Of a stretch of 64,000 bases of DNA, positions 17,615 through 39,304 are shown one piece after another. This DNA is from Pseudomonadota bacterium (lineage in GTDB: Bacteria > Bdellovibrionota_B > Oligoflexia > Oligoflexales > RGVZ01), in contig JBEGVZ010000114.1 of NCBI GenBank assembly GCA_041178085.1, positions 265 through 64,264 on the forward strand, given 5' to 3'. The notes under the pieces were generated by a model. It searched no databases. It was not told where the DNA came from and saw only the letters and a program-made list of their open reading frames with translations. Within the stretch, counting starts at the first letter, position 1; the number at the start of each line of letters is the position of its first letter. Made by a program: the position numbers and the translations under genes.

Positions 17615-18441
17615 TGAGGATCCTTGCCATCGGCGACGTGATGGGCAAGGCCGGACGGCAGGCTTTGAGCCACTTCTTGCCTGGCCTTCGCCGCGAGTTG
17701 AATCCGGATGTCGTGCTCGTGAACGGCGAAAACGCAGCCGGCGGGTTCGGCCTCACGGAAAAAATCTACGACCAGTTCATCACCCAGATGGAAATCGATT
17801 GCATCACGATGGGCAACCACTGGCACGACAAGCGTGAGTTTGTTCGCTTCGCCGAGCAGGCCCCGCGGATGGTGCTGCCTGCCAACATGATGAACGTGAA
17901 CGACCCGTCCAAGGGCGTAAAGGTGTTGCGATCCCGCTCAGGCAAGGAATTTGCCGTCATGAACGTGATTGGCAAGGCTTTCATGCACCCCGACAACCAC
18001 TCGCCGTTTCCTTTCATCGAACGGATGCTGGATATGATTCCGGCCGCTGTGCGGGTCCGGATCCTTGATGTGCACGCAGAGGCAACCAGTGAGAAGCAAG
18101 GCATTGGCCAGCATCTGGCCGGACGCGTTTCGCTGGTATATGGCACGCACTCTCACGTACCAACTGCCGACGAGCGAATCATCGACAAGAAGACCGGCTT
18201 TATCACGGATCTGGGAATGACCGGTCCGTATGACTCCGTGATCGGAATCCGGAAAGAGGCCGCTATCAAACGGCTGATGACTGGTGAAAAACAAAACTTC
18301 CAGCCTGCAAGCGGTAACCGGTGGCTATGTGCCGTTGTGACGGACATTGACGAGTCTACCGGGCATTGCCAGCGTATTTCGCGCATCAGGCTTGAGTCTG
18401 AGGAAACAGACAAGGGTAAAGAAAGGGACGACGAACCATGA
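17614..18441 (+). CDS. ymdB: YmdB-family metallophosphoesterase (2',3'-cyclic-nucleotide phosphodiesterase)
   Basis: MRILAIGDVMGKAGR, VNGENAAGGFG and GNHWHD motifs. Start overlaps the rny stop (TGATG). Confidence 0.9.
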   Translation: MRILAIGDVMGKAGRQALSHFLPGLRRELNPDVVLVNGENAAGGFGLTEKIYDQFITQMEIDCITMGNHWHDKREFVRFAEQAPRMVLPANMMNVNDPSKGVKVLRSRSGKEFAVMNVIGKAFMHPDNHSPFPFIERMLDMIPAAVRVRILDVHAEATSEKQGIGQHLAGRVSLVYGTHSHVPTADERIIDKKTGFITDLGMTGPYDSVIGIRKEAAIKRLMTGEKQNFQPASGNRWLCAVVTDIDESTGHCQRISRIRLESEETDKGKERDDEP

Positions 18442-20108
18442 GCACACTGAAAACACTTTTGCCAGCTGGCGGATTACTCTCTGCTGCAGCAATCACTCTT
18501 GCCGCGGCGCCGGCGCCGGCCCTTGCGTTTTTCCTGGACGGAAACGGCCACTACGCCCTGCGCGGTGCCACGCTCACAAATCCGGGATTCTCCACCGAAA
18601 GTGGCGTCTACCAGGGAGTTGAACAAAGTTTCAGGTTACAGGCCGAAGCGCGCATGAATGACAAGTCGAGTTTCTTCTCGGAAATCCGTTTTACGGATGA
18701 CCCGTCAAACTGGTTTCTGGGCGACACGGCAAAGCCCAGAAAATGTGTAACTCGCCGCGTTCCCACGGGCACGGAAGGATCCTACACAGAGGAAACCAGC
18801 TGCGAAGGTCGTCACCAGGACACTTCAAATCCCACTTACGCTCCTTATATGCCAGTTGTAACACAGGCATTTGCACGCCAGGCTTTTGATTTCTGCCTCG
18901 TTGAGGCTGGACGCAGGCCACGCAACTGGGGGATGGGCATGCTGCTTAGCAGCGGCTCGCGCCCATTCGACACAGAGTGGAGCACGTTCGACGGGATCGA
19001 CTGCAACGTCAACATCCAGAAGTCGCAGACGATCGGTTTCAAGTTTGGCTATGACAAGATCGCGGAAACTGGCACTGCCCTGGACAACCCCTACGACCGG
19101 ACAATCCCTGACAATGCCAGCGAGACAGCCTTCGACAGCTCTTCCGCAAAGTATGGCATCACGAATCCCGCTGACGACATCGACCAGTACTTTTTTAACA
19201 TTGAGGTTGATGACCGCAAGGCAAACGCCGGCGCTGCTGTAACCAAGCAGATCGGCATTTACGCGGCGAACATGATTGGCAAGGAATCGAAAACCGACAT
19301 CAAATACCTGGACATTTACACGGCGTTTTTCCTTTCCAACATCACATCCCGCCTTGAGGTTCTTTTCCGGTCCGGCAAATCTGCTGATCCGAACTGGGTA
19401 AGGACAGGCGGCGCACGGTTTCGCGACGGAGAGGTCGCGACCAACAAGGTCGACTCGATCGGAATTGCAGGAAACATTGAATGGACCCTGGCACGCTCTG
19501 GCAGCGCGATCGGCCCTGCTGATTACCGTCAAGGAAACACTTCACGGCACCTGCTATTCCTGGATTATGCCTACGCACCCGGTGACGACAATGCTTACTA
19601 TCGGGACGACGCTTCGTATTCTGATGAGACCATTGCTGCGATTGGCGAATCTCAGCGTGGAAACCGCGCCAAGACGATGGCCTTCAGCAGGAATTTCCAG
19701 CCTGCGCTAATCCTGTTTTCTGGCAAGGCCGGAACCGAAGCAACGGGATTGGACGGCGTCTACGATCCGGGTCAGGTCATGAACGCAGCGGTATTCGCTG
19801 CAGGCTACCGGCTTGAAAGCCTCGAATTTGGCAACTTTGAGGTCAAGGCCATTTCAGCCCGCCTTAACGCGTCCGTTCCGAAAAATGTCCGCGATTACTA
19901 TGCGGGCGTGGAAGGGGTAAAGCCTGTCGGCTTCCACGGCAACCAGCTAGGCCTGGAACTTGACATCAAGTATTCGCAGCAAATGGCAAATACCTTTGAA
20001 TACGGAATCGAAGGCGCCTATGCCAAAGGCGGCCCGGCGCTCAAAGTTTCGAATCGTGACCCGAGCGCTTCAATGCTGCTACAATCATACGCAACCTTCA
20101 AATTTTGA
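18438..20108 (+). CDS. Large secreted beta-barrel-like outer membrane protein, unknown family
   Basis: Signal peptide ending APALA|FF. C-terminal ...LLQSYATFKF (terminal Phe as in OMPs). ATGA overlap with ymdB. Confidence 0.7.
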   Translation: MSTLKTLLPAGGLLSAAAITLAAAPAPALAFFLDGNGHYALRGATLTNPGFSTESGVYQGVEQSFRLQAEARMNDKSSFFSEIRFTDDPSNWFLGDTAKPRKCVTRRVPTGTEGSYTEETSCEGRHQDTSNPTYAPYMPVVTQAFARQAFDFCLVEAGRRPRNWGMGMLLSSGSRPFDTEWSTFDGIDCNVNIQKSQTIGFKFGYDKIAETGTALDNPYDRTIPDNASETAFDSSSAKYGITNPADDIDQYFFNIEVDDRKANAGAAVTKQIGIYAANMIGKESKTDIKYLDIYTAFFLSNITSRLEVLFRSGKSADPNWVRTGGARFRDGEVATNKVDSIGIAGNIEWTLARSGSAIGPADYRQGNTSRHLLFLDYAYAPGDDNAYYRDDASYSDETIAAIGESQRGNRAKTMAFSRNFQPALILFSGKAGTEATGLDGVYDPGQVMNAAVFAAGYRLESLEFGNFEVKAISARLNASVPKNVRDYYAGVEGVKPVGFHGNQLGLELDIKYSQQMANTFEYGIEGAYAKGGPALKVSNRDPSASMLLQSYATFKF

Positions 20109-20117
20109 GTTGCTGCC

Positions 20118-21491
20118 ATGATGGAACGACTTTCACTGGATCCCGCCTCGTGGTCGAAGACTGAATGGACGCAGACCAGCGGCTTCCTGATGGCGTTGGC
20201 AGCCGCCCTGAACGAGTCAGGCGTCGTTCCACAAAGGCATCTCGATGCCCTGCGCATGGACTTGTCCGCACTTCAGAGCGGCGGTGGTTCTGCACGGCAG
20301 GTGCCACCGCTCTTGACGCTGGCCAAGGCAGGCAACGAATTCCTCAAGCTAGTGGAGGCGCGCTACGGCCGTGACCGCTTGATCCTTAACCTGTTCCGGC
20401 ACAGTGCAAAGAGCTGGATTTCGGAAACGGCGCGGGTCCTTGCCAGGTGGGGTGAGCAGGTCACCCGGAATTCCGACAAGGTCCTGAATCGCATCCTGAT
20501 CATCCACCGCCCTGGCAACGAGCCTGCGGATGAACGTCTTTTCTCCAGCCTGCTGGTCGACTTTGCCACCCGGATCCGCGGTTGCCTTGACGCGCTGGAT
20601 GAACTCTACAAGCGACTTGATGCAATGCACGGTGTTCCCCTCGATGTCCCCGGACAATCGGGTGATGAACAAGGCGTAGCCGCCAAGCTGTCGTTTTCGT
20701 CACTGGCCAGCGACACAGAGCTCGGTCGTGAGGAGGAATATTTTGTCCGGCGCGTGGCCCTTGAAATGGCCAACCTTGCCGGTGCAGTGGCCCACTTCTC
20801 AAGCCAACTCGCCCTGAACTGTGATGAAGCACCCGCCGTGTTGCTTGAGCTTCGCAACAATTGGATCAAGACCGAAGCATTACGCCTGTTTCATTTTTCA
20901 TGGCCGGGAGCCGAAAGCTTTGTGACTGCCGAGGTCTCACGTCAGCAAGCCATGATGTCCCTGGCGTCCATCACCAATGCCCTGCTTGACCTGGAAGCTG
21001 AGACATCCGCCCTCATGCCGGGGAGAATCTCGGGTTCGCCAAACCCTGCCACCAGGCAACGCGCCGAGTCTGTCAGGGGCGCGTTGATTGCAGACGCAAT
21101 GGTCGCTGGTCTTGATGGGGACGAGGCGGCACGCGCCGTAGTCGCCATGGTCTCTTATGCAGAACGTCATAACCTTTCGTCTCGAGAGATGATCGTCAGC
21201 GAGTTGCAGAAAATCCACCCGGCCTTGATGCCCCGCACACTCCAGTACTTCCAGTCTCTGACGGAAAACGATCCTGTCGCGGGCAGGAAAGCCAGTGAGA
21301 AGTCCGATAGCGCGAGCCGCTCCCGCAACTTGCTGAACTACTTTGCAGAGAAGTCGCGAAGCCTCTCTGCCATGCTTGCATTGGCGCTCACGACCATAAC
21401 TTTCCTTGGCGGCTGCGGGCTAAAGACGGCAACCAGAAGCGACGTCGACGACCTTCGTCCGGGAATCCCATTCAGGACGAACCAAAAATGA
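20118..21491 (+). CDS. Degenerate argininosuccinate-lyase-fold (fumarate lyase superfamily) protein with lipobox-like C-terminal tail
   Basis: By-eye colinearity with E. coli ArgH, e.g. KRLD..PL and ADxxVA....SELQK in the C-terminal domain. SRND and GSSxMPxKxN signatures are not recognisable. Tail is LALALTTITFLGGCGLK. Confidence 0.6.
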   Translation: MMERLSLDPASWSKTEWTQTSGFLMALAAALNESGVVPQRHLDALRMDLSALQSGGGSARQVPPLLTLAKAGNEFLKLVEARYGRDRLILNLFRHSAKSWISETARVLARWGEQVTRNSDKVLNRILIIHRPGNEPADERLFSSLLVDFATRIRGCLDALDELYKRLDAMHGVPLDVPGQSGDEQGVAAKLSFSSLASDTELGREEEYFVRRVALEMANLAGAVAHFSSQLALNCDEAPAVLLELRNNWIKTEALRLFHFSWPGAESFVTAEVSRQQAMMSLASITNALLDLEAETSALMPGRISGSPNPATRQRAESVRGALIADAMVAGLDGDEAARAVVAMVSYAERHNLSSREMIVSELQKIHPALMPRTLQYFQSLTENDPVAGRKASEKSDSASRSRNLLNYFAEKSRSLSAMLALALTTITFLGGCGLKTATRSDVDDLRPGIPFRTNQK

Positions 21492-22411
21492 AATCCGCGC
21501 ACCACACCCAATTTGAAAAGCAATTTTCAGGCGTCTGGACAGCCGTCGTCACTCCGTTCAAGGACGATTTTTCAATTGACTGGGCCGCCTGGGAAAAGCT
21601 GCTTGAGCACCAGGCCAAAGGCGGTGTCGCCGGTGTCGTAGTCTCCGGAACAACCGGTGAAAGCCCAACCTTGACTGTCCAGGAGAAGATTTCCCTGGTG
21701 CGCAAGGCACGCGCCGTATTGCCAAAGGAAATTCGTGTCATGGCCGGCAGTGGTGGCAATAACACGGAGCAAAGCATCGAACTCTCGCGCTTGTGTGTGG
21801 ACGCGGGCGCAGACAGCCTGCTGGTCGTGACGCCACCCTACAACAAGCCGTCCCCGGAAGGGTTGAAACTCCACTTTTCCATGGTCGCGTCTGCCGTGAA
21901 AGTTCCCGTTTGCCTTTACCACGTACCGGGGCGCACCGGGCAGATGCTAAGCCCCGATGTTCTGGCGGCACTTTGCTCTTTGCCGGGAGTTCATGCGGTC
22001 AAGGAAGCTAGTGGTGACTTGGCGTTTTTTTCGCGCGCTGTGGTCAAGACTCGCAAGGAAGGAACGGCATTTCTCTCAGGGGACGACATCACTTTCCTGC
22101 CGAGCCTTGCCATTGGCGGCTGTGGTGTCATCAGCGTGATGTCAAATGTTCTGCCAGCAGAGGCCGTTTCCTTGTGGAAGGAATGGACCTCTGGCGAGGC
22201 TGCGGCTGCACTCAACCGGCACAACCGCTTGCAACCTTTCATGGACGCCCTGTTCTGTGAATCAAATCCGGGGCCCGTGAAGGAGATCCTCGCGCAGCAG
22301 GGGTTCATGGGTCGGACGGTCAGGCCTCCGCTGGCTCCAGTGACTTCAGGCAGCGCGAAATTGGTCGCTGCTGCATTTGCCTCTGCGACTGGTTCCAGCA
22401 AGGGACTTTGA
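21488..22411 (+). CDS. dapA: 4-hydroxy-tetrahydrodipicolinate synthase
   Basis: TAVVTPF, SGTTGESPTLT, YNKP, and the Lys context AVKEASGD. Confidence 0.95.
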   Translation: MKSAHHTQFEKQFSGVWTAVVTPFKDDFSIDWAAWEKLLEHQAKGGVAGVVVSGTTGESPTLTVQEKISLVRKARAVLPKEIRVMAGSGGNNTEQSIELSRLCVDAGADSLLVVTPPYNKPSPEGLKLHFSMVASAVKVPVCLYHVPGRTGQMLSPDVLAALCSLPGVHAVKEASGDLAFFSRAVVKTRKEGTAFLSGDDITFLPSLAIGGCGVISVMSNVLPAEAVSLWKEWTSGEAAAALNRHNRLQPFMDALFCESNPGPVKEILAQQGFMGRTVRPPLAPVTSGSAKLVAAAFASATGSSKGL

Positions 22412-23208
22412 TCATGGCCAACCAACGCAAACAGGCGCCCCTTGCAATCTGGCTTCATGGAGCATCGGGGCGGATGGGCCTTGAAATCCAACAGGCGCTT
22501 GCAAGGAGATCCGGTGAGTTTCGCTTGATCGGCGGATCCGGTCGGACTTTCCTTGGTGACAGCCTTCTAACGGGAAAGCCTGCCACGCCCGAGAAACTCT
22601 CCCATGCACTGAGCCATGGGGTCGACGCCGTCATCGACTTTTCGTTGCCGGCTGGAAACCTTATCCTGGCCAAAGCCTTCCAGATGATCGAACCGGCGCG
22701 CAGACCTCAAGTGCTGGTTGGCACCACGGGCATTGATGAGAAAACACGGAAAATATGGGAAAAGATCGCTTCAAACATGAAGCAGGGAAGTGTTTTCATC
22801 GCGCCAAATACAAGCCGCGGTGTCCTTGCCACCATGGAAGGGGCGCTCCGAATCCAAGGCATGCTTTCTGGCACCGGGGCAGATGTGACAATCGTTGAGA
22901 CACATCACATCATGAAAAAGGACGCCCCGAGTGGCACAGCGAAGATGCTTGCTGAGAAATTAAAAGCGACTGCGGATGCTGACATCCAGATTGTGTCTGT
23001 GCGGGGTGGTGGCATCTTTGGCGAACACGAAATCCGTTTTATGGGAAAGCACGACGAAATAGCGATCACCCACCGCGCTTATTCGCGCGGCCTTTTTGCC
23101 GAGGGCGCACTTGACCTTGCCGCATGGCAACAGCAGCGCCGGAAAAAACTGGCGTCGAAATTGATTGATATATCTGCTTATGCCAGGGACCTTGCCGGTT
23201 CCTGCTAG
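22408..23208 (+). CDS. dapB: 4-hydroxy-tetrahydrodipicolinate reductase
   Basis: GASGRMG nucleotide-binding motif and ETHHIMKKDAPSGTA signature. ATGA overlap with dapA. Confidence 0.9.
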   Translation: MIMANQRKQAPLAIWLHGASGRMGLEIQQALARRSGEFRLIGGSGRTFLGDSLLTGKPATPEKLSHALSHGVDAVIDFSLPAGNLILAKAFQMIEPARRPQVLVGTTGIDEKTRKIWEKIASNMKQGSVFIAPNTSRGVLATMEGALRIQGMLSGTGADVTIVETHHIMKKDAPSGTAKMLAEKLKATADADIQIVSVRGGGIFGEHEIRFMGKHDEIAITHRAYSRGLFAEGALDLAAWQQQRRKKLASKLIDISAYARDLAGSC

Positions 23209-25433
23209 TGATGAGCGTCTGGGTTGAACCACGCAGACAGCTTGCTGCCAACCTGGACAATCGACGTCGCCTCTCCGTAGACGCTGACAACATCTGCTCC
23301 AACCCAAGTACCAGAACCTGACTCCACGACGAGTCCATAAATCCCGGGCGGGACATTGAAGAACAGTGCCTTTGTCACCGGGGAGTCGCTGAACACCCAT
23401 GGTTCAGAAACCGTCTGTCCAGCCTCATTCACCAGGCGGACGGAAATGCGACCGGATCCTTGCCCCTGAAGGTCACCATATTCCACAAGCACAGAACCTT
23501 CTGTGAATTCCTGGGTTTCATCCGCATAAACTGCCATATCCTGGACGAAGCCGCGCGGCAGGACAGGAAGGACATTGACTTGGCTGCCCTTGGCAGACGC
23601 AGCGATCCGGTGGATGGACGGCTCAAAGTCGGGATTGTCCAGATAAACTACTTCGGAAGAACCTGCGCTGCTTACGTGGGAGCCGGTACCCTGGATGTTG
23701 TCACCGGCTGGGAAAAGTTTCTGTGTCGTTGCGACAAGGACCGCATCCTGGTGGTCTTCGACGACATAACTTTGCTGCTGCGCGGCGCCACCAAGTTGCT
23801 CATGAGCAGACGATTCACGTGCAAACTGCACATAAGTTCCAGAAACCCTTGGCGATACGAGCGGCTGTTCATGTGTGTGACGGCCAGCAAGGACTGGGAA
23901 CTCCCGCGCCATGATCTGCGTTCCACCTTGCCATGCGGAAACATTGACCGGTCCCGGGTCCACATTGAAGTAACAAACGCGTCCCGCGCTCGAAGTGGTG
24001 CCAAGCTGGTGATCGATGACCCCGTCCCGGTTGAAGTGGAACGGGCCGATGGCCCGCACGTCAAGCTTCACCTGGATTCCCTCAGGCGATGCCTCTGGGG
24101 CGGTGTGGAAATCAAGACAAAGCGAACCTTTACTCTCTGACTGCACAAGACCGGCCATCCTGGTCCACATATCGAAAGCCGTAGCCCTCGGGATCACCAG
24201 TTTTTTCTCAAATCGCGATGAGCCACCGGCCTTCCCACCCTCACCAAGGGAGATCAGTCCGGCTGACTTGACGTAGGTACCTGACGGATCATTTGCTGCA
24301 ACGAGCAAACTCGAACCGCCCGGAATGTCCGATATTTGAACTTCTCCGTGTGCATCACTGATCGAAGAGAATTCCGCTCCCGCGACATACACCTGAACAC
24401 CTGCCACTGGGAAGGCGCCACCGGTCGCAGTGTTTCGTTCATCGACCGCTTTCAATTGCAATGCCGCGCGTGATGCACGCGCTGCCGCACGGCGAAGACG
24501 AATTTCTCTGGCCGAGTCGGCGGCCGCAGCCTGGCTGGCTTCGCTGCTCGAAGCGTGAATGCTGACCGCGTCGCCGACTGTGCTGCTTCCGCCGGCTGCA
24601 ATGCCTGCTGCGGATACATCAGAAAGGGCCAGGCTTGCATGGTCCGCTGACGCTGCCTGAGGCAATCGCGCAAGCTCTGGTGGCAAGGCAAGGTTTCTTC
24701 CGTTCGAGGCAACTTTGACATCCCGCGGTGCAACAGCCGGTGGATTGCCAACGGTGACAGGCACGACGACCAGCTGTCCAGCCCGTGCAACGTAAATTTC
24801 CGTTTGTGTATCAGGGATCACTGCTGTCAAGGTGCGACTTGCGGGATCCCAGTGCACGCGACTCGCATCGCGCGGATAAATCTGGATTGGCTGCGCTTCG
24901 TCTGCGCCTGTGAGGTCATCCATCGCGATCTCGACAGAACCTCCCGCCCTTGGAATCCGGATGGCTGGGGGTTGAACGGAAAGTCCAACGCTCGTAGCCA
25001 GCACGCGCACTGCGGAACGTTCGTCGCCAAGACTGATCGAGATGCCGCTTCTTGACGACGGTACGTAGGAGTCATCTTCAATGGAGACGACAGCTTCCTT
25101 GCGCTCAACTTTTCCGGCGCGCGTCGTTTTTTCGACGGCGACAAGAATGCCACTCTCATCCGCTGGAAGTGCTGGCGCTGAAGGTCTGTAATCACCAGCC
25201 ACAACTTGCGCGAAGTTGCGTGCGGGGGCTGCCCTCTGCGCCAGCAATTGCGCGAGCGATCGTTCCGATATTGCCGGAGCTTTCTCCGCAAGACCTATTC
25301 CAGCAAACGGGCCATCGATGTGTCGTGTGGAAGTAGCAAGCGCAGAAGTTGAAGACAAGTAAAGCGCGGCCATACCCGCAACGGCGGGCAGTGAGGGAAC
25401 GACTGCAATGCGATTTATGCGACGCATCATCAA
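23205..25433 (-). CDS. Large secreted protein with carboxypeptidase-regulatory-like beta-sandwich modules
   Basis: 742 aa. Signal peptide. Segments such as VAGVQVYVAGAEFSSISDAHGEVQISDIPGGSSLLV and FFNVPPGIYGLVVES resemble CarboxypepD_reg-type repeats. No catalytic motif seen. Confidence 0.7.
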   Translation of the reverse strand: MMMRRINRIAVVPSLPAVAGMAALYLSSTSALATSTRHIDGPFAGIGLAEKAPAISERSLAQLLAQRAAPARNFAQVVAGDYRPSAPALPADESGILVAVEKTTRAGKVERKEAVVSIEDDSYVPSSRSGISISLGDERSAVRVLATSVGLSVQPPAIRIPRAGGSVEIAMDDLTGADEAQPIQIYPRDASRVHWDPASRTLTAVIPDTQTEIYVARAGQLVVVPVTVGNPPAVAPRDVKVASNGRNLALPPELARLPQAASADHASLALSDVSAAGIAAGGSSTVGDAVSIHASSSEASQAAAADSAREIRLRRAAARASRAALQLKAVDERNTATGGAFPVAGVQVYVAGAEFSSISDAHGEVQISDIPGGSSLLVAANDPSGTYVKSAGLISLGEGGKAGGSSRFEKKLVIPRATAFDMWTRMAGLVQSESKGSLCLDFHTAPEASPEGIQVKLDVRAIGPFHFNRDGVIDHQLGTTSSAGRVCYFNVDPGPVNVSAWQGGTQIMAREFPVLAGRHTHEQPLVSPRVSGTYVQFARESSAHEQLGGAAQQQSYVVEDHQDAVLVATTQKLFPAGDNIQGTGSHVSSAGSSEVVYLDNPDFEPSIHRIAASAKGSQVNVLPVLPRGFVQDMAVYADETQEFTEGSVLVEYGDLQGQGSGRISVRLVNEAGQTVSEPWVFSDSPVTKALFFNVPPGIYGLVVESGSGTWVGADVVSVYGEATSIVQVGSKLSAWFNPDAHH

Positions 25434-35126: not shown

Positions 35127-36911
35127 ATGAACCAGAAAGTATCCGCCGCATCGATCCGCCAGAAGTACCTCGACTTCTATAAGGGCCGTGAGCACGCGCT
35201 CATCCCATCGGCGTCGCTGCAACCGGAAAACGACCCGACGATCCTTTTCACCACTGCGGGCATGCACCCCCTGGTTCCCTACTTGATGGGCGCGCCGCAT
35301 CCGCTGGGCAAACGCCTTGCTAACAGCCAGAAGTGCATCCGCACACAAGACATCGACGAAGTCGGCGATGACTGGCACTGCACGTTTTTCGAGATGCTCG
35401 GCAATTGGAGCCTCGGCAACTACTTCAAGAAAGAGGCGATCACCTGGACCCACGAATTCATCACCAAGGTCCTGGGTTTTGACCAGAACCGCCTTGCCGT
35501 CACCGTCTTTGGCGGGGACGCACAAACTCCAGCGGATGAAACGTCCTATGAAGTCTGGCGCAGCATTGGTTACCCGGCAGAGCGCATCTTCCGGCTCGGG
35601 CGAAAAGACAACTTCTGGGGGCCGGTTGGCAATTCCGGACCATGCGGACCAGACTCTGAAACCTTTTTCATAACGCGCGACCACTGCAACAAGAACGACC
35701 CCAACTGTTCTCCGGCATGCAACTGCGGCCGCTATGTCGAAATCTGCAATAACGTCTTCATGGAGTACAACAAGCAGGCGGACGGTGGTTTCACCAAACT
35801 GCCACAACCCAACGTCGACTTTGGCATGGGTCTTTTGCGCGTGGCTTCGATCATGAGTGGAGCTTCAAGCGTTTACGAATCAGACATCTATTCACGGGCG
35901 ATGACATACCTGCACCAGGCCGCGCCCTCGCTGCCAGAGAAATCCCAGCGCATCATCGCCGACCACTTGCAGGCGGCAATGTTCGCAATCTGTGACGGTG
36001 TCGTGCCGTCCAATGTCGGCGCGGGTTATATCGTGCGCCGCGTCCTGCGCCGTGCTTTCCGGCTTGCCAACCAGGCCGAACTGGAACCGCACTACATTGA
36101 CGCAATCGTCGATGGCTTTATTGCCATCTACGCGGAGCAATACCCGGATCTCGACAAGAAGCGTAACGCCATCGTCCACGAAATGCGGGACGAAGAACAG
36201 AAATTCGCAAAAGCTCTGGGCCAGGGGCTCAAGCACCTGGAGAAGGAGCTTGCACGGATGCCGGCGGGCGAGACGACCATCGCTGGTCAGCTTGCCTTCT
36301 TCATGTTTGAAACTTACGGATTCCCGCTCGAGGTAACTCAGGAAATTGGCGGTGAACGCGGCCTTGCGGTTGACGTCGATGGCTACGAAAAAGCCTACGC
36401 TGAACACCAGGCAAAATCCCGAATGGCCGGGGAAAAGCTTTTCAAAGGCGGCCTGAGCGACACGTCGATGGAAAGCACACGCCTGCACACGGCAACACAC
36501 TTGCTGCACGAGGCACTGCGCCGCGTCCTTGGTCCTCACGTCGAGCAAAAAGGCAGCAACATCACGCCGGAGCGCTTGCGCTTTGATTTCTCCCACCCGG
36601 ATAAAATGACCAGAGAGCAAATCGACGCCGTGGAGAAGCTCGTCAACGAAGCGATCACCCGGCAGATGGATGTCCACCTGGAAAACATGACCGTCGACGA
36701 CGCCAAGGCGCGCGGAGCAATTGGCCTGTTCGAAGACAAGTACGCAGACCGCATCAATGTCTACTTCATCGGTGATTTCTCAACTGAGATTTGTGGTGGA
36801 CCACACGTGCGCAACACGCGGGAACTCGGCCAGTTCAAGATCCAGAAGGAAGAAGCGTCATCCCGCGGCGTGCGTCGGATCAAGGCTGTGCTGGTCAATG
36901 CGCCAACCTGA
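35127..36911 (+). CDS. alaS: Alanine--tRNA ligase, short form (no C-Ala domain)
   Basis: IRQKYLDFYK..H, FTTAGM and TFFEMLGNWSLGNYFK (class II core). Editing-domain HTATHLLH and CGGPHV. The ORF ends at 594 aa, right after ...GVRRIKAVL. Confidence 0.85.
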   Translation: MNQKVSAASIRQKYLDFYKGREHALIPSASLQPENDPTILFTTAGMHPLVPYLMGAPHPLGKRLANSQKCIRTQDIDEVGDDWHCTFFEMLGNWSLGNYFKKEAITWTHEFITKVLGFDQNRLAVTVFGGDAQTPADETSYEVWRSIGYPAERIFRLGRKDNFWGPVGNSGPCGPDSETFFITRDHCNKNDPNCSPACNCGRYVEICNNVFMEYNKQADGGFTKLPQPNVDFGMGLLRVASIMSGASSVYESDIYSRAMTYLHQAAPSLPEKSQRIIADHLQAAMFAICDGVVPSNVGAGYIVRRVLRRAFRLANQAELEPHYIDAIVDGFIAIYAEQYPDLDKKRNAIVHEMRDEEQKFAKALGQGLKHLEKELARMPAGETTIAGQLAFFMFETYGFPLEVTQEIGGERGLAVDVDGYEKAYAEHQAKSRMAGEKLFKGGLSDTSMESTRLHTATHLLHEALRRVLGPHVEQKGSNITPERLRFDFSHPDKMTREQIDAVEKLVNEAITRQMDVHLENMTVDDAKARGAIGLFEDKYADRINVYFIGDFSTEICGGPHVRNTRELGQFKIQKEEASSRGVRRIKAVLVNAPT

Positions 36912-37951: not shown

Positions 37952-39304
37952 TTATCTAAGTTGCATCAAACGCACCGGTAATTCTTTGAGCGTTGCATAG
38001 CCAAAGGTAACCGGTGCCGCGACCACAAAGCCTGTCACAATCAATGCCATCAAATGGCGGGGCTTGAATCCACCACGACCAGCAAGTCGTGACCACAAAA
38101 AGATCGAGAGCAAGACACTCCACGTGAGTGGCGGCAGGTAGTGATAAAGAAAGAGGCCGCGCGAGACCAGGCTGTAGGGCAGGTAAGAAGCGACCCATGC
38201 CAGAAAAAGGACCAGGACAATCCCGATGGAAAGCGAATCGTGCCTTGAACGGTCTGTCGCTGCGCTCCATGCAAAGCGCACCAGTAGCAACAACCCGGAA
38301 CCTTGCAGGCCCCACCAGACGAAGGGATTGCCCGCGAAGTAGATGACAGAATCACCACTGACCCAATAATAAATTGGCTTTTTCATGGTCGGCCATCCCC
38401 ACCAGGGACTTGCCCAGGGGTGCGAGGCCGTGATGCCGTTGTTGGCGGCCAGCATTACCTTGTGCAGTTGGAAAAGATCCTGAAAAAAATTACCTGTGAC
38501 TTTGTAGAAGGCATCGCCCGGCCCGGGTTGGTTGAGGAGAAAAAAGTGCGCCTTCCAGCCGATCAGGTAGACCACGGTAAATCCAGCCAGAGCCATGATG
38601 AAACCCGCAACGGGCTCCAAGAACCCGGAAGGCTTCATCCCCGCGTCAAAAAGATGCCAGGCCAGACGCGCCATGATCACCGGGATGATGGCCAGTCCTG
38701 TGAACTTTGCGCTGACGGAGAGGGCGACCGCGGCACCGATGCCCAGGCACAGTCCGAGTCGCTGGGCGGTGCTCCGTTCTTCGAGGAGAATTTCGCACAG
38801 CCACAGGGCCAACATGGAGCCAAGGATCAGTTGCCCGTCCAGGGCCATGATCCGCGTTTGAATGAGCAAGGCGTTATCAAGGGCCAGGGCGAGGCCACCC
38901 GCGAATGCCCATGCCACAGGAACGCGCCAGCGCCGCAGGAGAAGAAAACCCACCAGGGGAATCATTGTCCCCGTGAGGGCGGGCCACAGGCGAAGGGCTG
39001 CGACAGGGCCACCGGAAAGGCTCTCACCAATGGTGGTGAATCCAAGATTTCCCGTGTATCCACCGAGGGTTGCAAACAAGGACATGATGAGCTTGGGGTG
39101 CGGGGGATGGATGTCAAAAATCATCTGACGGGTGCAACAATAGGCGTTCACGAATTTACCAAAGTGGTACTCGTCGAAGACCACCTGCCCCGGGTGGGAT
39201 AGGCCGGCAAAATGGACCAGGATGGCAATCAGCGTCAGGATTAAAAAGGCAGCATGATGGCTTGCTGCAGTGGCTCCAGGCACACTTGGCAGACTGATTT
39301 TCAA
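37952..39304 (-). CDS. GT39 PMT-family (dolichyl/polyprenyl-phosphate-mannose protein mannosyltransferase-like) membrane glycosyltransferase
   Basis: Polytopic membrane protein. Loop-1 motif VVFDEYHFGKF...FDIHPPHPKL matches the PMT DE motif region. Confidence 0.8.
   Translation of the reverse strand: MKISLPSVPGATAASHHAAFLILTLIAILVHFAGLSHPGQVVFDEYHFGKFVNAYCCTRQMIFDIHPPHPKLIMSLFATLGGYTGNLGFTTIGESLSGGPVAALRLWPALTGTMIPLVGFLLLRRWRVPVAWAFAGGLALALDNALLIQTRIMALDGQLILGSMLALWLCEILLEERSTAQRLGLCLGIGAAVALSVSAKFTGLAIIPVIMARLAWHLFDAGMKPSGFLEPVAGFIMALAGFTVVYLIGWKAHFFLLNQPGPGDAFYKVTGNFFQDLFQLHKVMLAANNGITASHPWASPWWGWPTMKKPIYYWVSGDSVIYFAGNPFVWWGLQGSGLLLLVRFAWSAATDRSRHDSLSIGIVLVLFLAWVASYLPYSLVSRGLFLYHYLPPLTWSVLLSIFLWSRLAGRGGFKPRHLMALIVTGFVVAAPVTFGYATLKELPVRLMQLR

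Follow-up and report, generated by a model that had tools for sequence, protein, structure and literature searches.

A conserved in-frame join of an argininosuccinate lyase-fold module and a lipoprotein-like tail upstream of dapA-dapB in Oligoflexia

The subject of this analysis is a gene for a 457-aa protein located directly upstream of the lysine/diaminopimelate (DAP) biosynthesis genes dapA and dapB, in a 64,000-nucleotide stretch of DNA from an Oligoflexales bacterium (assembly GCA_041178085.1, contig JBEGVZ010000114.1, positions 265 to 64,264 of the forward strand; hereafter the window). Its open reading frame (ORF) combines two known kinds of protein, an apparent pseudoenzyme related to argininosuccinate lyase (ASL; ArgH) and a candidate lipoprotein of the LptM type. 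What is unusual is their in-frame join, conserved across Oligoflexia bacteria, which places a lipoprotein signal ~410 residues into the chain. LptM (YifL) is a small outer-membrane lipoprotein of the LptD/E lipopolysaccharide (LPS) translocon, described in 2023. On balance we favor the account in which the gene is an Oligoflexia version of argH-lptM, with a dead ArgH fused to an LptM-like lipoprotein that would be processed and act on LptD/E. Some 180 clusters of "hypothetical proteins" thereby become describable.

The argininosuccinate lyase-fold module and its catalytic regions

The fusion ORF and its N-terminal module are laid out as follows:

20118..21491, plus strand: whole fusion ORF, 457 aa and stop, ATG start; apparent ArgH-derived pseudoenzyme module joined in frame to an LptM-like prolipoprotein module
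20118..21347, plus strand: ASL-fold module, residues 1-410 (PDB profile match, hhalign, structure model, Foldseek and substitution rates)
20367..20405, plus strand: remnant of region C1 (TGRSRNDQ), residues 84-96 GRDRLILNLFRHS, loop shortened (hhalign and column counts)
20484..20549, plus strand: remnant of region C2 (GYTHLQRAQP), residues 123-144 LNRILIIHRPGNEPADERLFSS (hhalign, PDB profile and column counts)
20817..20849, plus strand: deletion site of the C3 loop (GSSLMPQKKNP), residues 234-244 (alignment and column counts)

A word-indexed search returned 11 close homologues, each of them full length and bearing the tail, and an exhaustive hidden Markov model (HMM) search with the alignment of close homologues extended the family to 183 representative clusters, most of them 440-510 aa long and matching the profile over roughly positions 7-455, tail included. 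The family alignment used below (A2) holds 106 sequences with 16-53% identity to the window protein, and counts out of 106 refer to it. Glu362, Cys433 and Gly434 are invariant, and G84, N124, E272, R275, G331, A337, Y347, L370, K395, K436, R447 and P448 are conserved in at least 90% of the sequences. Loci with the gene were labelled Oligoflexales, Pseudobacteriovorax antillogorgiicola (Bdellovibrionota, class Oligoflexia) or, more loosely, "Pseudomonadota" metagenome-assembled genomes (MAGs). Related loci were collected with the pattern [DE][LF]RP[ED]IPFR, which biases the sample toward tail-bearing members.

The homology to ASL was visible only with the 106-sequence alignment. The single window sequence had no match in Pfam even at E ≤ 1 (Lyase_1, PF00206, and ASL_C2, PF14698, included), in NCBIfam or in PDB, and a profile from the 10 closest homologues only gave a spurious match to dynein. 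The A2 profile, searched against PDB, matched delta-2 crystallin (E = 6.9e-10; profile positions 92-229 with residues 125-262 and 281-409 with 335-465, collinear), human ASL (E = 7.8e-7; a single stretch, profile 90-370 with residues 121-424) and M. tuberculosis ASL (E = 6.1e-5), and no fumarase, aspartase or adenylosuccinate lyase. An origin from another lyase class was rejected, since only ASL and delta-crystallin were matched by sequence. Alignment with E. coli ArgH by hhalign gave 341-343 collinear columns (29-378 with 42-425) at a probability of 44-66%, the ArgH side being a shallow profile for which the E. coli ArgH search had provided only near-identical enterobacterial sequences.

Structure prediction agreed with the profile matches. 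AlphaFold2 (AF2) run with the deep alignment returned a model with a mean predicted local distance difference test score (pLDDT) of 92.3 and a predicted template modelling score (pTM) of 0.88, superseding a first run with 10 sequences (pLDDT 67.7, Foldseek template modelling (TM) score ~0.4). Foldseek of the later model against PDB placed ASL or delta-crystallin in 49 of the top 50 positions, the remaining one being an EDDS lyase of the same superfamily (E from 2.7e-10 to 2e-8, TM 0.51-0.61, ~455 columns). These results show that residues 1 to ~410 share both the fold of ASL and homology with it. The module has no N-terminal signal peptide and is therefore presumably cytoplasmic.

The initial annotation had proposed an ASL fold from three matches to ArgH, and these are also the stretches paired in the computed profile alignment: AALNESGVVPQRHLDAL with ArgH KALVTVGVLTAEE, IIHRPGNEP...YKRLDAMHGVPL with GYTHLQRAQP...LKRLDVSPLG, and IADAMVAGL...SELQKIHP with LADYLVAKG...SELQKFS. 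The proposed fold is thus borne out by the family profile, the AF2 model and Foldseek. The profile check that the annotation had suggested turned out positive at the level of the family, against ASL structures, and negative for the single sequence against Lyase_1 and ASL_C2. Its further statement that the fumarate-lyase signatures are no longer recognizable agrees with the alignments in all three regions. The loop of C1 is shortened, and Asn91 alone is retained, aligned to Asn110 of E. coli ArgH across gaps in the hhalign alignment; conserved columns in the remnant are G84 (96/106), N91 (91/106) and R94 (90/106). In C2, the columns aligned to the catalytic Thr and His (131 and 132) are unconserved, with Q/R/S/L/D and G/D/N/E respectively, and a new FNR motif, with N124 in 105/106, stands in place of the old one. 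The C3 site spans 6-11 residues in the family (from N234 to column 244), against ~27 in E. coli ArgH, so that the catalytic Ser and Lys are lost, and no GSS or KxN motif was found at this site across the family. With all catalytic signatures lost from the alignment, the module is predicted to be dead as a lyase.

Conservation has arisen elsewhere in the module, in a motif W-E272-x-R-R275 (E272 in 97/106, R275 in 102/106) and in the invariant E362. These near-invariant polar residues, together with N124, the strong purifying selection and the shared operon with dapA-dapB, would suit a module that is still an enzyme, namely a diverged catalyst of lyase fold whose active site is new and which acts, for example, in lysine/DAP or envelope metabolism. 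We regard this as very improbable, because all three signature regions, from which members of the superfamily build their shared active site, are gone, with the catalytic loop deleted, because the module diverges far faster than DapA at the same loci, and because one lineage lacks it while keeping the lipoprotein and dapA. Across loci L010-L014 the ASL module is 26-29% identical, whereas RNase Y is ~60% and DapA 54-62% identical there.

The ratio of nonsynonymous to synonymous substitution rates (dN/dS) was saturated for most pairs of loci, the pair L001/L006 being usable and the pair of the window with L022 marginal. For L001/L006 it was 0.082 in the ASL module, 0.20 in the signal segment and 0.027 in the mature peptide, showing that both modules are under purifying selection. 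A decaying pseudogene was rejected on the dN/dS of 0.08 and the confident fold. The ASL-like module is fast-evolving yet constrained, and the pseudoenzyme, although selected, is dispensable in at least one lineage.

The lipoprotein-like tail in fused, split and stand-alone form

The C-terminal part of the ORF comprises two segments:

21348..21413, plus strand: signal-peptide-like segment, residues 411-432 EKSRSLSAMLALALTTITFLGG; n-region positively charged, h-region uncharged, lipobox L-G-G
21414..21488, plus strand: predicted mature lipopeptide CGLKTATRSDVDDLRPGIPFRTNQK, residues 433-457, 25 aa, with the Cys433 codon at 21414-21416

The last ~45 residues read EKSRSLSAMLALALTTITFLGG-C433-GLKTATRSDVDDLRPGIPFRTNQK, the segment before Cys433 having also been noted as ...SAMLALALTTITFLGG. 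A lipobox of the form [LVI][ASTVI][GAS]C is present in the window as L-G-G-C433, following the charged n-region and the hydrophobic h-region. In the family, position -3 is mostly Leu (45 sequences) and position -1 is Gly, Ser or Ala in 105/106. Cys433 and Gly434 (+1) are found in 106/106, L/V/F/I at +2 in 104/106 and Lys436 (+3) in 105/106, followed by Thr at +4 (74/106), Pro at +6 (85/106) and Ser at +8 (92/106), which gives the tail consensus C-G-[LV]-K-T-x-P-x-S...R-P-x-I-P-[FY]. The uncharged stretch before Cys has a median length of 17 aa in fused proteins, compared with lengths of 12-16 aa in E. coli LptM and the stand-alone homologues, and a mean net charge of +1.65 is found over the ten residues up to and including the last charged one upstream of Cys. 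Length and charge are those expected of a signal peptide's n- and h-regions in N-in orientation. The lipobox that the initial annotation had seen in the tail is accordingly present in the window, and the alignment shows a canonical lipobox motif with an invariant Cys-Gly and a conserved CG[LV]K start.

Five proteins carry a variant lipobox (P0032, P0127, P0136, P0134 and P0160), with Met, His or Asn at -1 or with C-A-V-[RK] replacing C-G-x-K; these tails may be unprocessed or degenerating. In AF2 model m52b258a42f50, residues 441-450 (DVDDLRPGIP), a short motif predicted to be periplasmic, have a pLDDT of ~82 and are flanked by regions of low confidence (57 and 66).

The tail is in frame with the ASL module in ~146 of the 160 family proteins retrieved (126 full length, 15 N-truncated and 5 with a variant lipobox). 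Most of the others are N-terminal fragments, and clear splits are limited to P0114 and P0150, with P0155 ambiguous. The in-frame fusion is real and is the usual state. The source is a MAG, and split versions exist elsewhere, which might raise the suspicion that a lost stop codon or a frameshift joined two genes in assembly or annotation. We rejected such an artefact as having a negligible chance, since the same in-frame join recurs in ~146 independent protein clusters, which come from many samples and assemblers, and in nine genome loci. The question left by the initial annotation, fusion or separate small gene, is thus answered by the orthologues as fusion in the large majority and split ORFs in a few relatives.

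The separate forms are of several types. In L015 (GCA_030432875.1) the ASL-like gene ends after 418 aa and is followed by a 206-nt spacer, a 74-aa ORF (MFMHKFFCSKQLAFILSSIGLLCLAS-CGLKTAPFSKHPELRPYLPF...) and dapA-dapB. In L017 the TGA of the ASL-like ORF overlaps, as TGATG, the ATG of a 65-aa ORF (MSKSLFCLTLLALLQSFA-CGVKLSPKSDLEDLRPSIPY...), with dapA next. In L019 and in L020/L021 the modules lie in different frames, as ORFs that overlap by 49-58 nt. L018 and a 6.5-kb sister contig have no ASL module at all; here a 67-aa lipoprotein gene, placed before dapA, directly abuts the 556-aa gene that otherwise precedes the fusion. Where both modules are present and split (four relatives), the break always falls at HMM position ~405-410, the ASL ORF ending at 405-408. 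The stand-alone prolipoprotein genes, which encode 65-75 aa, are:

L015, 4464-4688
L017, 2025-2222
L018, 1487-1690
L019, 958-1179
L020, 140-367

All five start with ATG, encode ordinary N-terminal signal peptides and occupy the same place before dapA. A search with the tail profile returned 5 small proteins and no fused members, so that these are examples of stand-alone genes and not a census. The split and ASL-less relatives show homology between the tail and stand-alone prolipoprotein genes found at this locus, and, taken with the fused loci, they amount to a natural series in which the modules are fused, split or, for the ASL module, lost. In the window protein the signal is not at the translated N-terminus, since Cys is number 433 of its 457 residues; no internal start turned out to be conserved, and in the five stand-alone homologues the signal is N-terminal.

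Relation to LptM, proposed processing and rival explanations

Nine residues, C20GLKGPLYF28, are sufficient for the function of E. coli LptM, and the substitution G21W abolishes its binding to LptD (10.1101/2025.01.03.631273). The CGLK of the window tail corresponds to the first four residues of this functional core. Compared by hhalign with E. coli LptM, the tail profile scored a probability of 90%, with the five residues after CGLK differing. PF13627 (LptM_cons) was the only recurring Pfam family among the tails, found in 12/68 at E ≤ 1 with a best E of 0.0017. From Cys to the end, the mature segment is 23-75 aa long in the family (median 47.5), with the window near the lower end at 25 aa.

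Gene order points in the same direction. Among proteobacterial lptM genes, the two neighbours most often seen at gaps <32 nt are a lyase (PF00206) and a LysA-type decarboxylase (PF02784) (PMC10567701 supplement). In E. coli, lptM lies directly upstream of dapF. In the loci studied here the ASL-like module is upstream and dapA-dapB downstream in all cases, the partner gene being dapA and not lysA. The published order of Lyase_1, lptM and lysine-pathway gene (PMC10567701) matches that of the window and offers independent support for the LptM link. The initial annotation had placed lptM next to dapF or lysA, in line with dapF in E. coli and with the common PF02784 neighbour. By sequence comparison taken on its own, we consider the relationship of the tail to LptM suggestive, the match staying below threshold; the CGLK start, the short mature segment and the gene order strengthen it.

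In the explanation that we favor, the gene would be the counterpart in Oligoflexia (Bdellovibrionota) of the argH-lptM-lysA cluster of Proteobacteria. Its argH part would have lost the lyase chemistry and been retained under selection as a folded ASL-type domain. No stop codon separates it from the small lipoprotein gene, so that one polypeptide is made. The hydrophobic segment (residues ~413-432) would then insert post-translationally into the inner membrane, N-in/C-out, in the manner of a tail anchor, after which Lgt would lipidate Cys433 and LspA cleave before it. The resulting lipopeptide, ~25 residues long here and 23-75 across the family, carries Gly at +2 and would be sorted by Lol to the outer membrane and act on the LptD/E translocon as LptM does, while the ASL-like domain would stay at the cytoplasmic face of the inner membrane through the leftover signal segment, in a non-catalytic role. 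The same mature product would arise from the fusion or from a small precursor, which may explain why fused, split and ASL-less forms persist. More tentatively, and in our estimate falling somewhat short of an even chance, a single fusion, tail-anchored and then cut by signal peptidase II, may supply the inner-membrane ArgH pseudoenzyme and the outer-membrane LptM-like lipopeptide in a 1:1 ratio, co-expressed with the DAP genes, which serve peptidoglycan precursor synthesis.

Several observations weigh against this explanation. The window tail scored 13.9 bits against PF13627 (E = 0.051), below the cut-off of 27.3. LptM/YifL was the best PDB match of the tail profile (E = 0.02), with a Notch transmembrane peptide nearly equal. 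Past CGLK, the mature motif T-x-P-x-S...RPxIPF differs from GPLYF. The idea of an LptM-like tail in the initial annotation is on the whole supported, with the CGLK start, the context and the best PDB match in its favor and the sub-threshold PF13627 score against it. All nine fused loci examined have in-frame NTG codons ahead of the h-region, and TTG405 (nt 21330) is kept in the three closest sequences, so that an additional, internally initiated product is possible. A scan for internal Shine-Dalgarno (SD) sequences has little power here, because true starts in this lineage, that of the ORF itself included, often lack one. Relatives with separate genes, and one without the ASL module, show that the lipoprotein does not depend on the covalent link. 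Finally, we know of no bacterial lipoprotein with its signal ~410 residues into the chain, although no literature search was made.

The internal codons bear on an alternative with two products from one frame, in which the small prolipoprotein would come mainly from an internal start (TTG405 or ATG419) and follow the ordinary N-terminal export route, the read-through fusion being a tolerated by-product or merely anchoring the ASL-like domain. We think this unlikely. In its favor, stand-alone and TGATG-overlapping versions in relatives indicate that the module can work as its own gene, each fused locus has at least one in-frame ATG, GTG or TTG 9-45 codons before Cys, and the conservation of TTG405 in the closest relatives would suit it. 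However, the position of the start is not conserved, the internal NTG codons varying across the nine fused loci. Met is not enriched before the h-region (at -35 to -13 before Cys in 54/126 fused proteins, 43%, against 37% expected from composition), whereas the five stand-alone genes all use ATG. ATG419 (nt 21372) is Thr in an 82%-identical orthologue and would give a signal peptide without a charged n-region. Only 3/33 candidate starts had a 4-nt SD-like core at a plausible spacing, a weak argument given the low use of SD sequences in the lineage. Moreover, with no stop codon between the modules, ribosomes translating the upstream one must still make the fusion polypeptide.

The tail might also be a membrane anchor and nothing else. 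The protein would then be a pseudoenzyme anchored in the inner membrane by its tail, it and its short periplasmic peptide would undergo neither lipidation nor cleavage, and the likeness to LptM would be convergent or trivial. The hydrophobic stretch is indeed somewhat longer in fused proteins (reaching 27 or more) than in stand-alone ones, a few fused members are non-canonical at -1 (M, H or N), and the LptM match is sub-threshold. We nevertheless judge a plain anchor to be quite unlikely, because the lipobox is retained in 105/106 sequences with Cys-Gly invariant, the module is a normal N-terminal prolipoprotein in relatives, constraint is highest in its mature part (dN/dS 0.03) and the operon context matches that of lptM. 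The processed fusion with an LptM-like product remains the explanation that we prefer.

Should the more tentative reading be true, in which one fusion is cut to supply both membrane products, lptM would be older than Proteobacteria and the linkage of argH, lptM and lysA would reflect a functional tie, not a historical accident. The family suggests a recognizable LptM relative in Bdellovibrionota (Oligoflexia) that has kept the CGLK start and the same operon neighbourhood, and it would extend the range of lptM, since lptM-like genes have been reported to be virtually absent outside Proteobacteria (PMC10567701). The fusion offers a natural test of how far a signal may lie from the N-terminus, which bears on Sec/YidC targeting and on the limits of recognition by Lgt and LspA, and the fused, split and ASL-less variants could be used to study why argH, lptM and the lysine/DAP genes stay together.

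Gene neighbourhood and comparison with known systems

The genes flanking the fusion in the window are:

18438..20108, plus strand: upstream neighbour of 556 aa, taken as genomic context only; signal peptide present, last residue Phe (...ATFKF)
21488..22411, plus strand: dapA, 4-hydroxy-tetrahydrodipicolinate synthase (PF00701, E = 1e-74; TIGR00674, 280 bits against a cut-off of 206)
22408..23208, plus strand: dapB, 4-hydroxy-tetrahydrodipicolinate reductase, overlapping dapA (PF01113 and PF05173)

The TGA of the fusion ORF (21489-21491) overlaps the ATG of dapA (21488) as ATGA, just as had been read in the initial annotation. At 21466..21491, and at the corresponding place in L001, L006, L008 and L022 of the close clade, the tail-end codons ...IPFR (CCATTCAGGA) provide the only SD-like AGGA, ~9-11 nt before the dapA start. 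Part of the nucleotide conservation at the end of the tail may serve dapA translation. The 556-aa upstream neighbour had no match in a Pfam scan and a weak, partial match to TIGR04551 (E = 2.8e-5). It is conserved upstream in all Oligoflexales loci and is probably an uncharacterised outer-membrane beta-barrel. All longer loci have the order RNase Y, YmdB, 556-aa protein, fusion gene, dapA and dapB, with a convergent 742-aa ORF, and the gene order is kept even where the fusion protein is only 26-29% identical. In the window this last ORF, at 23205..25433 on the minus strand, converges with dapB; the protein had no match in a Pfam scan, and its counterparts at the same position in all related loci are 28-61% identical.

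A tblastn search of the 64-kb window gave no canonical argH (best E = 1.8), and when 36 other ORFs there were scanned with Pfam, the matches were to housekeeping genes only. Among the other ORFs of the window, the one at 35127..36911 (plus strand) is alanyl-tRNA synthetase-like with only 594 aa (tRNA-synt_2c and tRNA_SAD). Bacterial alanyl-tRNA synthetases are usually longer, and its C-terminal part may be missing or separately encoded. At 37952..39304 (minus strand) lies a gene for a 450-aa dolichyl-phosphate-mannose protein mannosyltransferase of the PMT family (PF02366 and PF16192), a family uncommon in Gram-negative bacteria.

In comparison with known systems, the N-terminal module resembles ArgH and delta-1 crystallin in its three-domain, mainly helical fold, its equal length and its collinear profile match, and shares with ASL_C2 the C-terminal domain motif comprising G331, A337 and the E362 of ...SELxKIHP. 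It differs from ArgH in the loss or deletion of TGRSRNDQ, GYTHLQRAQP and GSSLMPQKKNP, and no known ASL has a C-terminal hydrophobic segment and lipobox as the window protein has. For an ASL retained in a non-catalytic role, delta-1 crystallin is the classic precedent; the family described here would be a bacterial parallel, with an enzyme of amino acid biosynthesis retained as a pseudoenzyme under strong selection.

The overall layout is reminiscent of tail-anchored proteins such as E. coli DjlC, Flk and ElaB, which have a large cytoplasmic N-terminal domain, one hydrophobic segment and a few dozen residues after it, a layout that implies post-translational insertion. Known tail anchors are without a lipobox, which the window protein has, and are not known to be cleaved by signal peptidase II. 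With LptM, reported as <70 aa, the tail shares the lipobox Cys followed by Gly-Leu-Lys, a very short mature peptide and a position directly between a lyase-fold gene and a lysine/DAP biosynthesis gene. It differs in being followed by dapA-dapB in place of lysA or dapF, in forming the C-terminal end of a 457-aa protein, and in belonging to a family of Bdellovibrionota, outside the proteobacterial range reported for lptM (PMC10567701).

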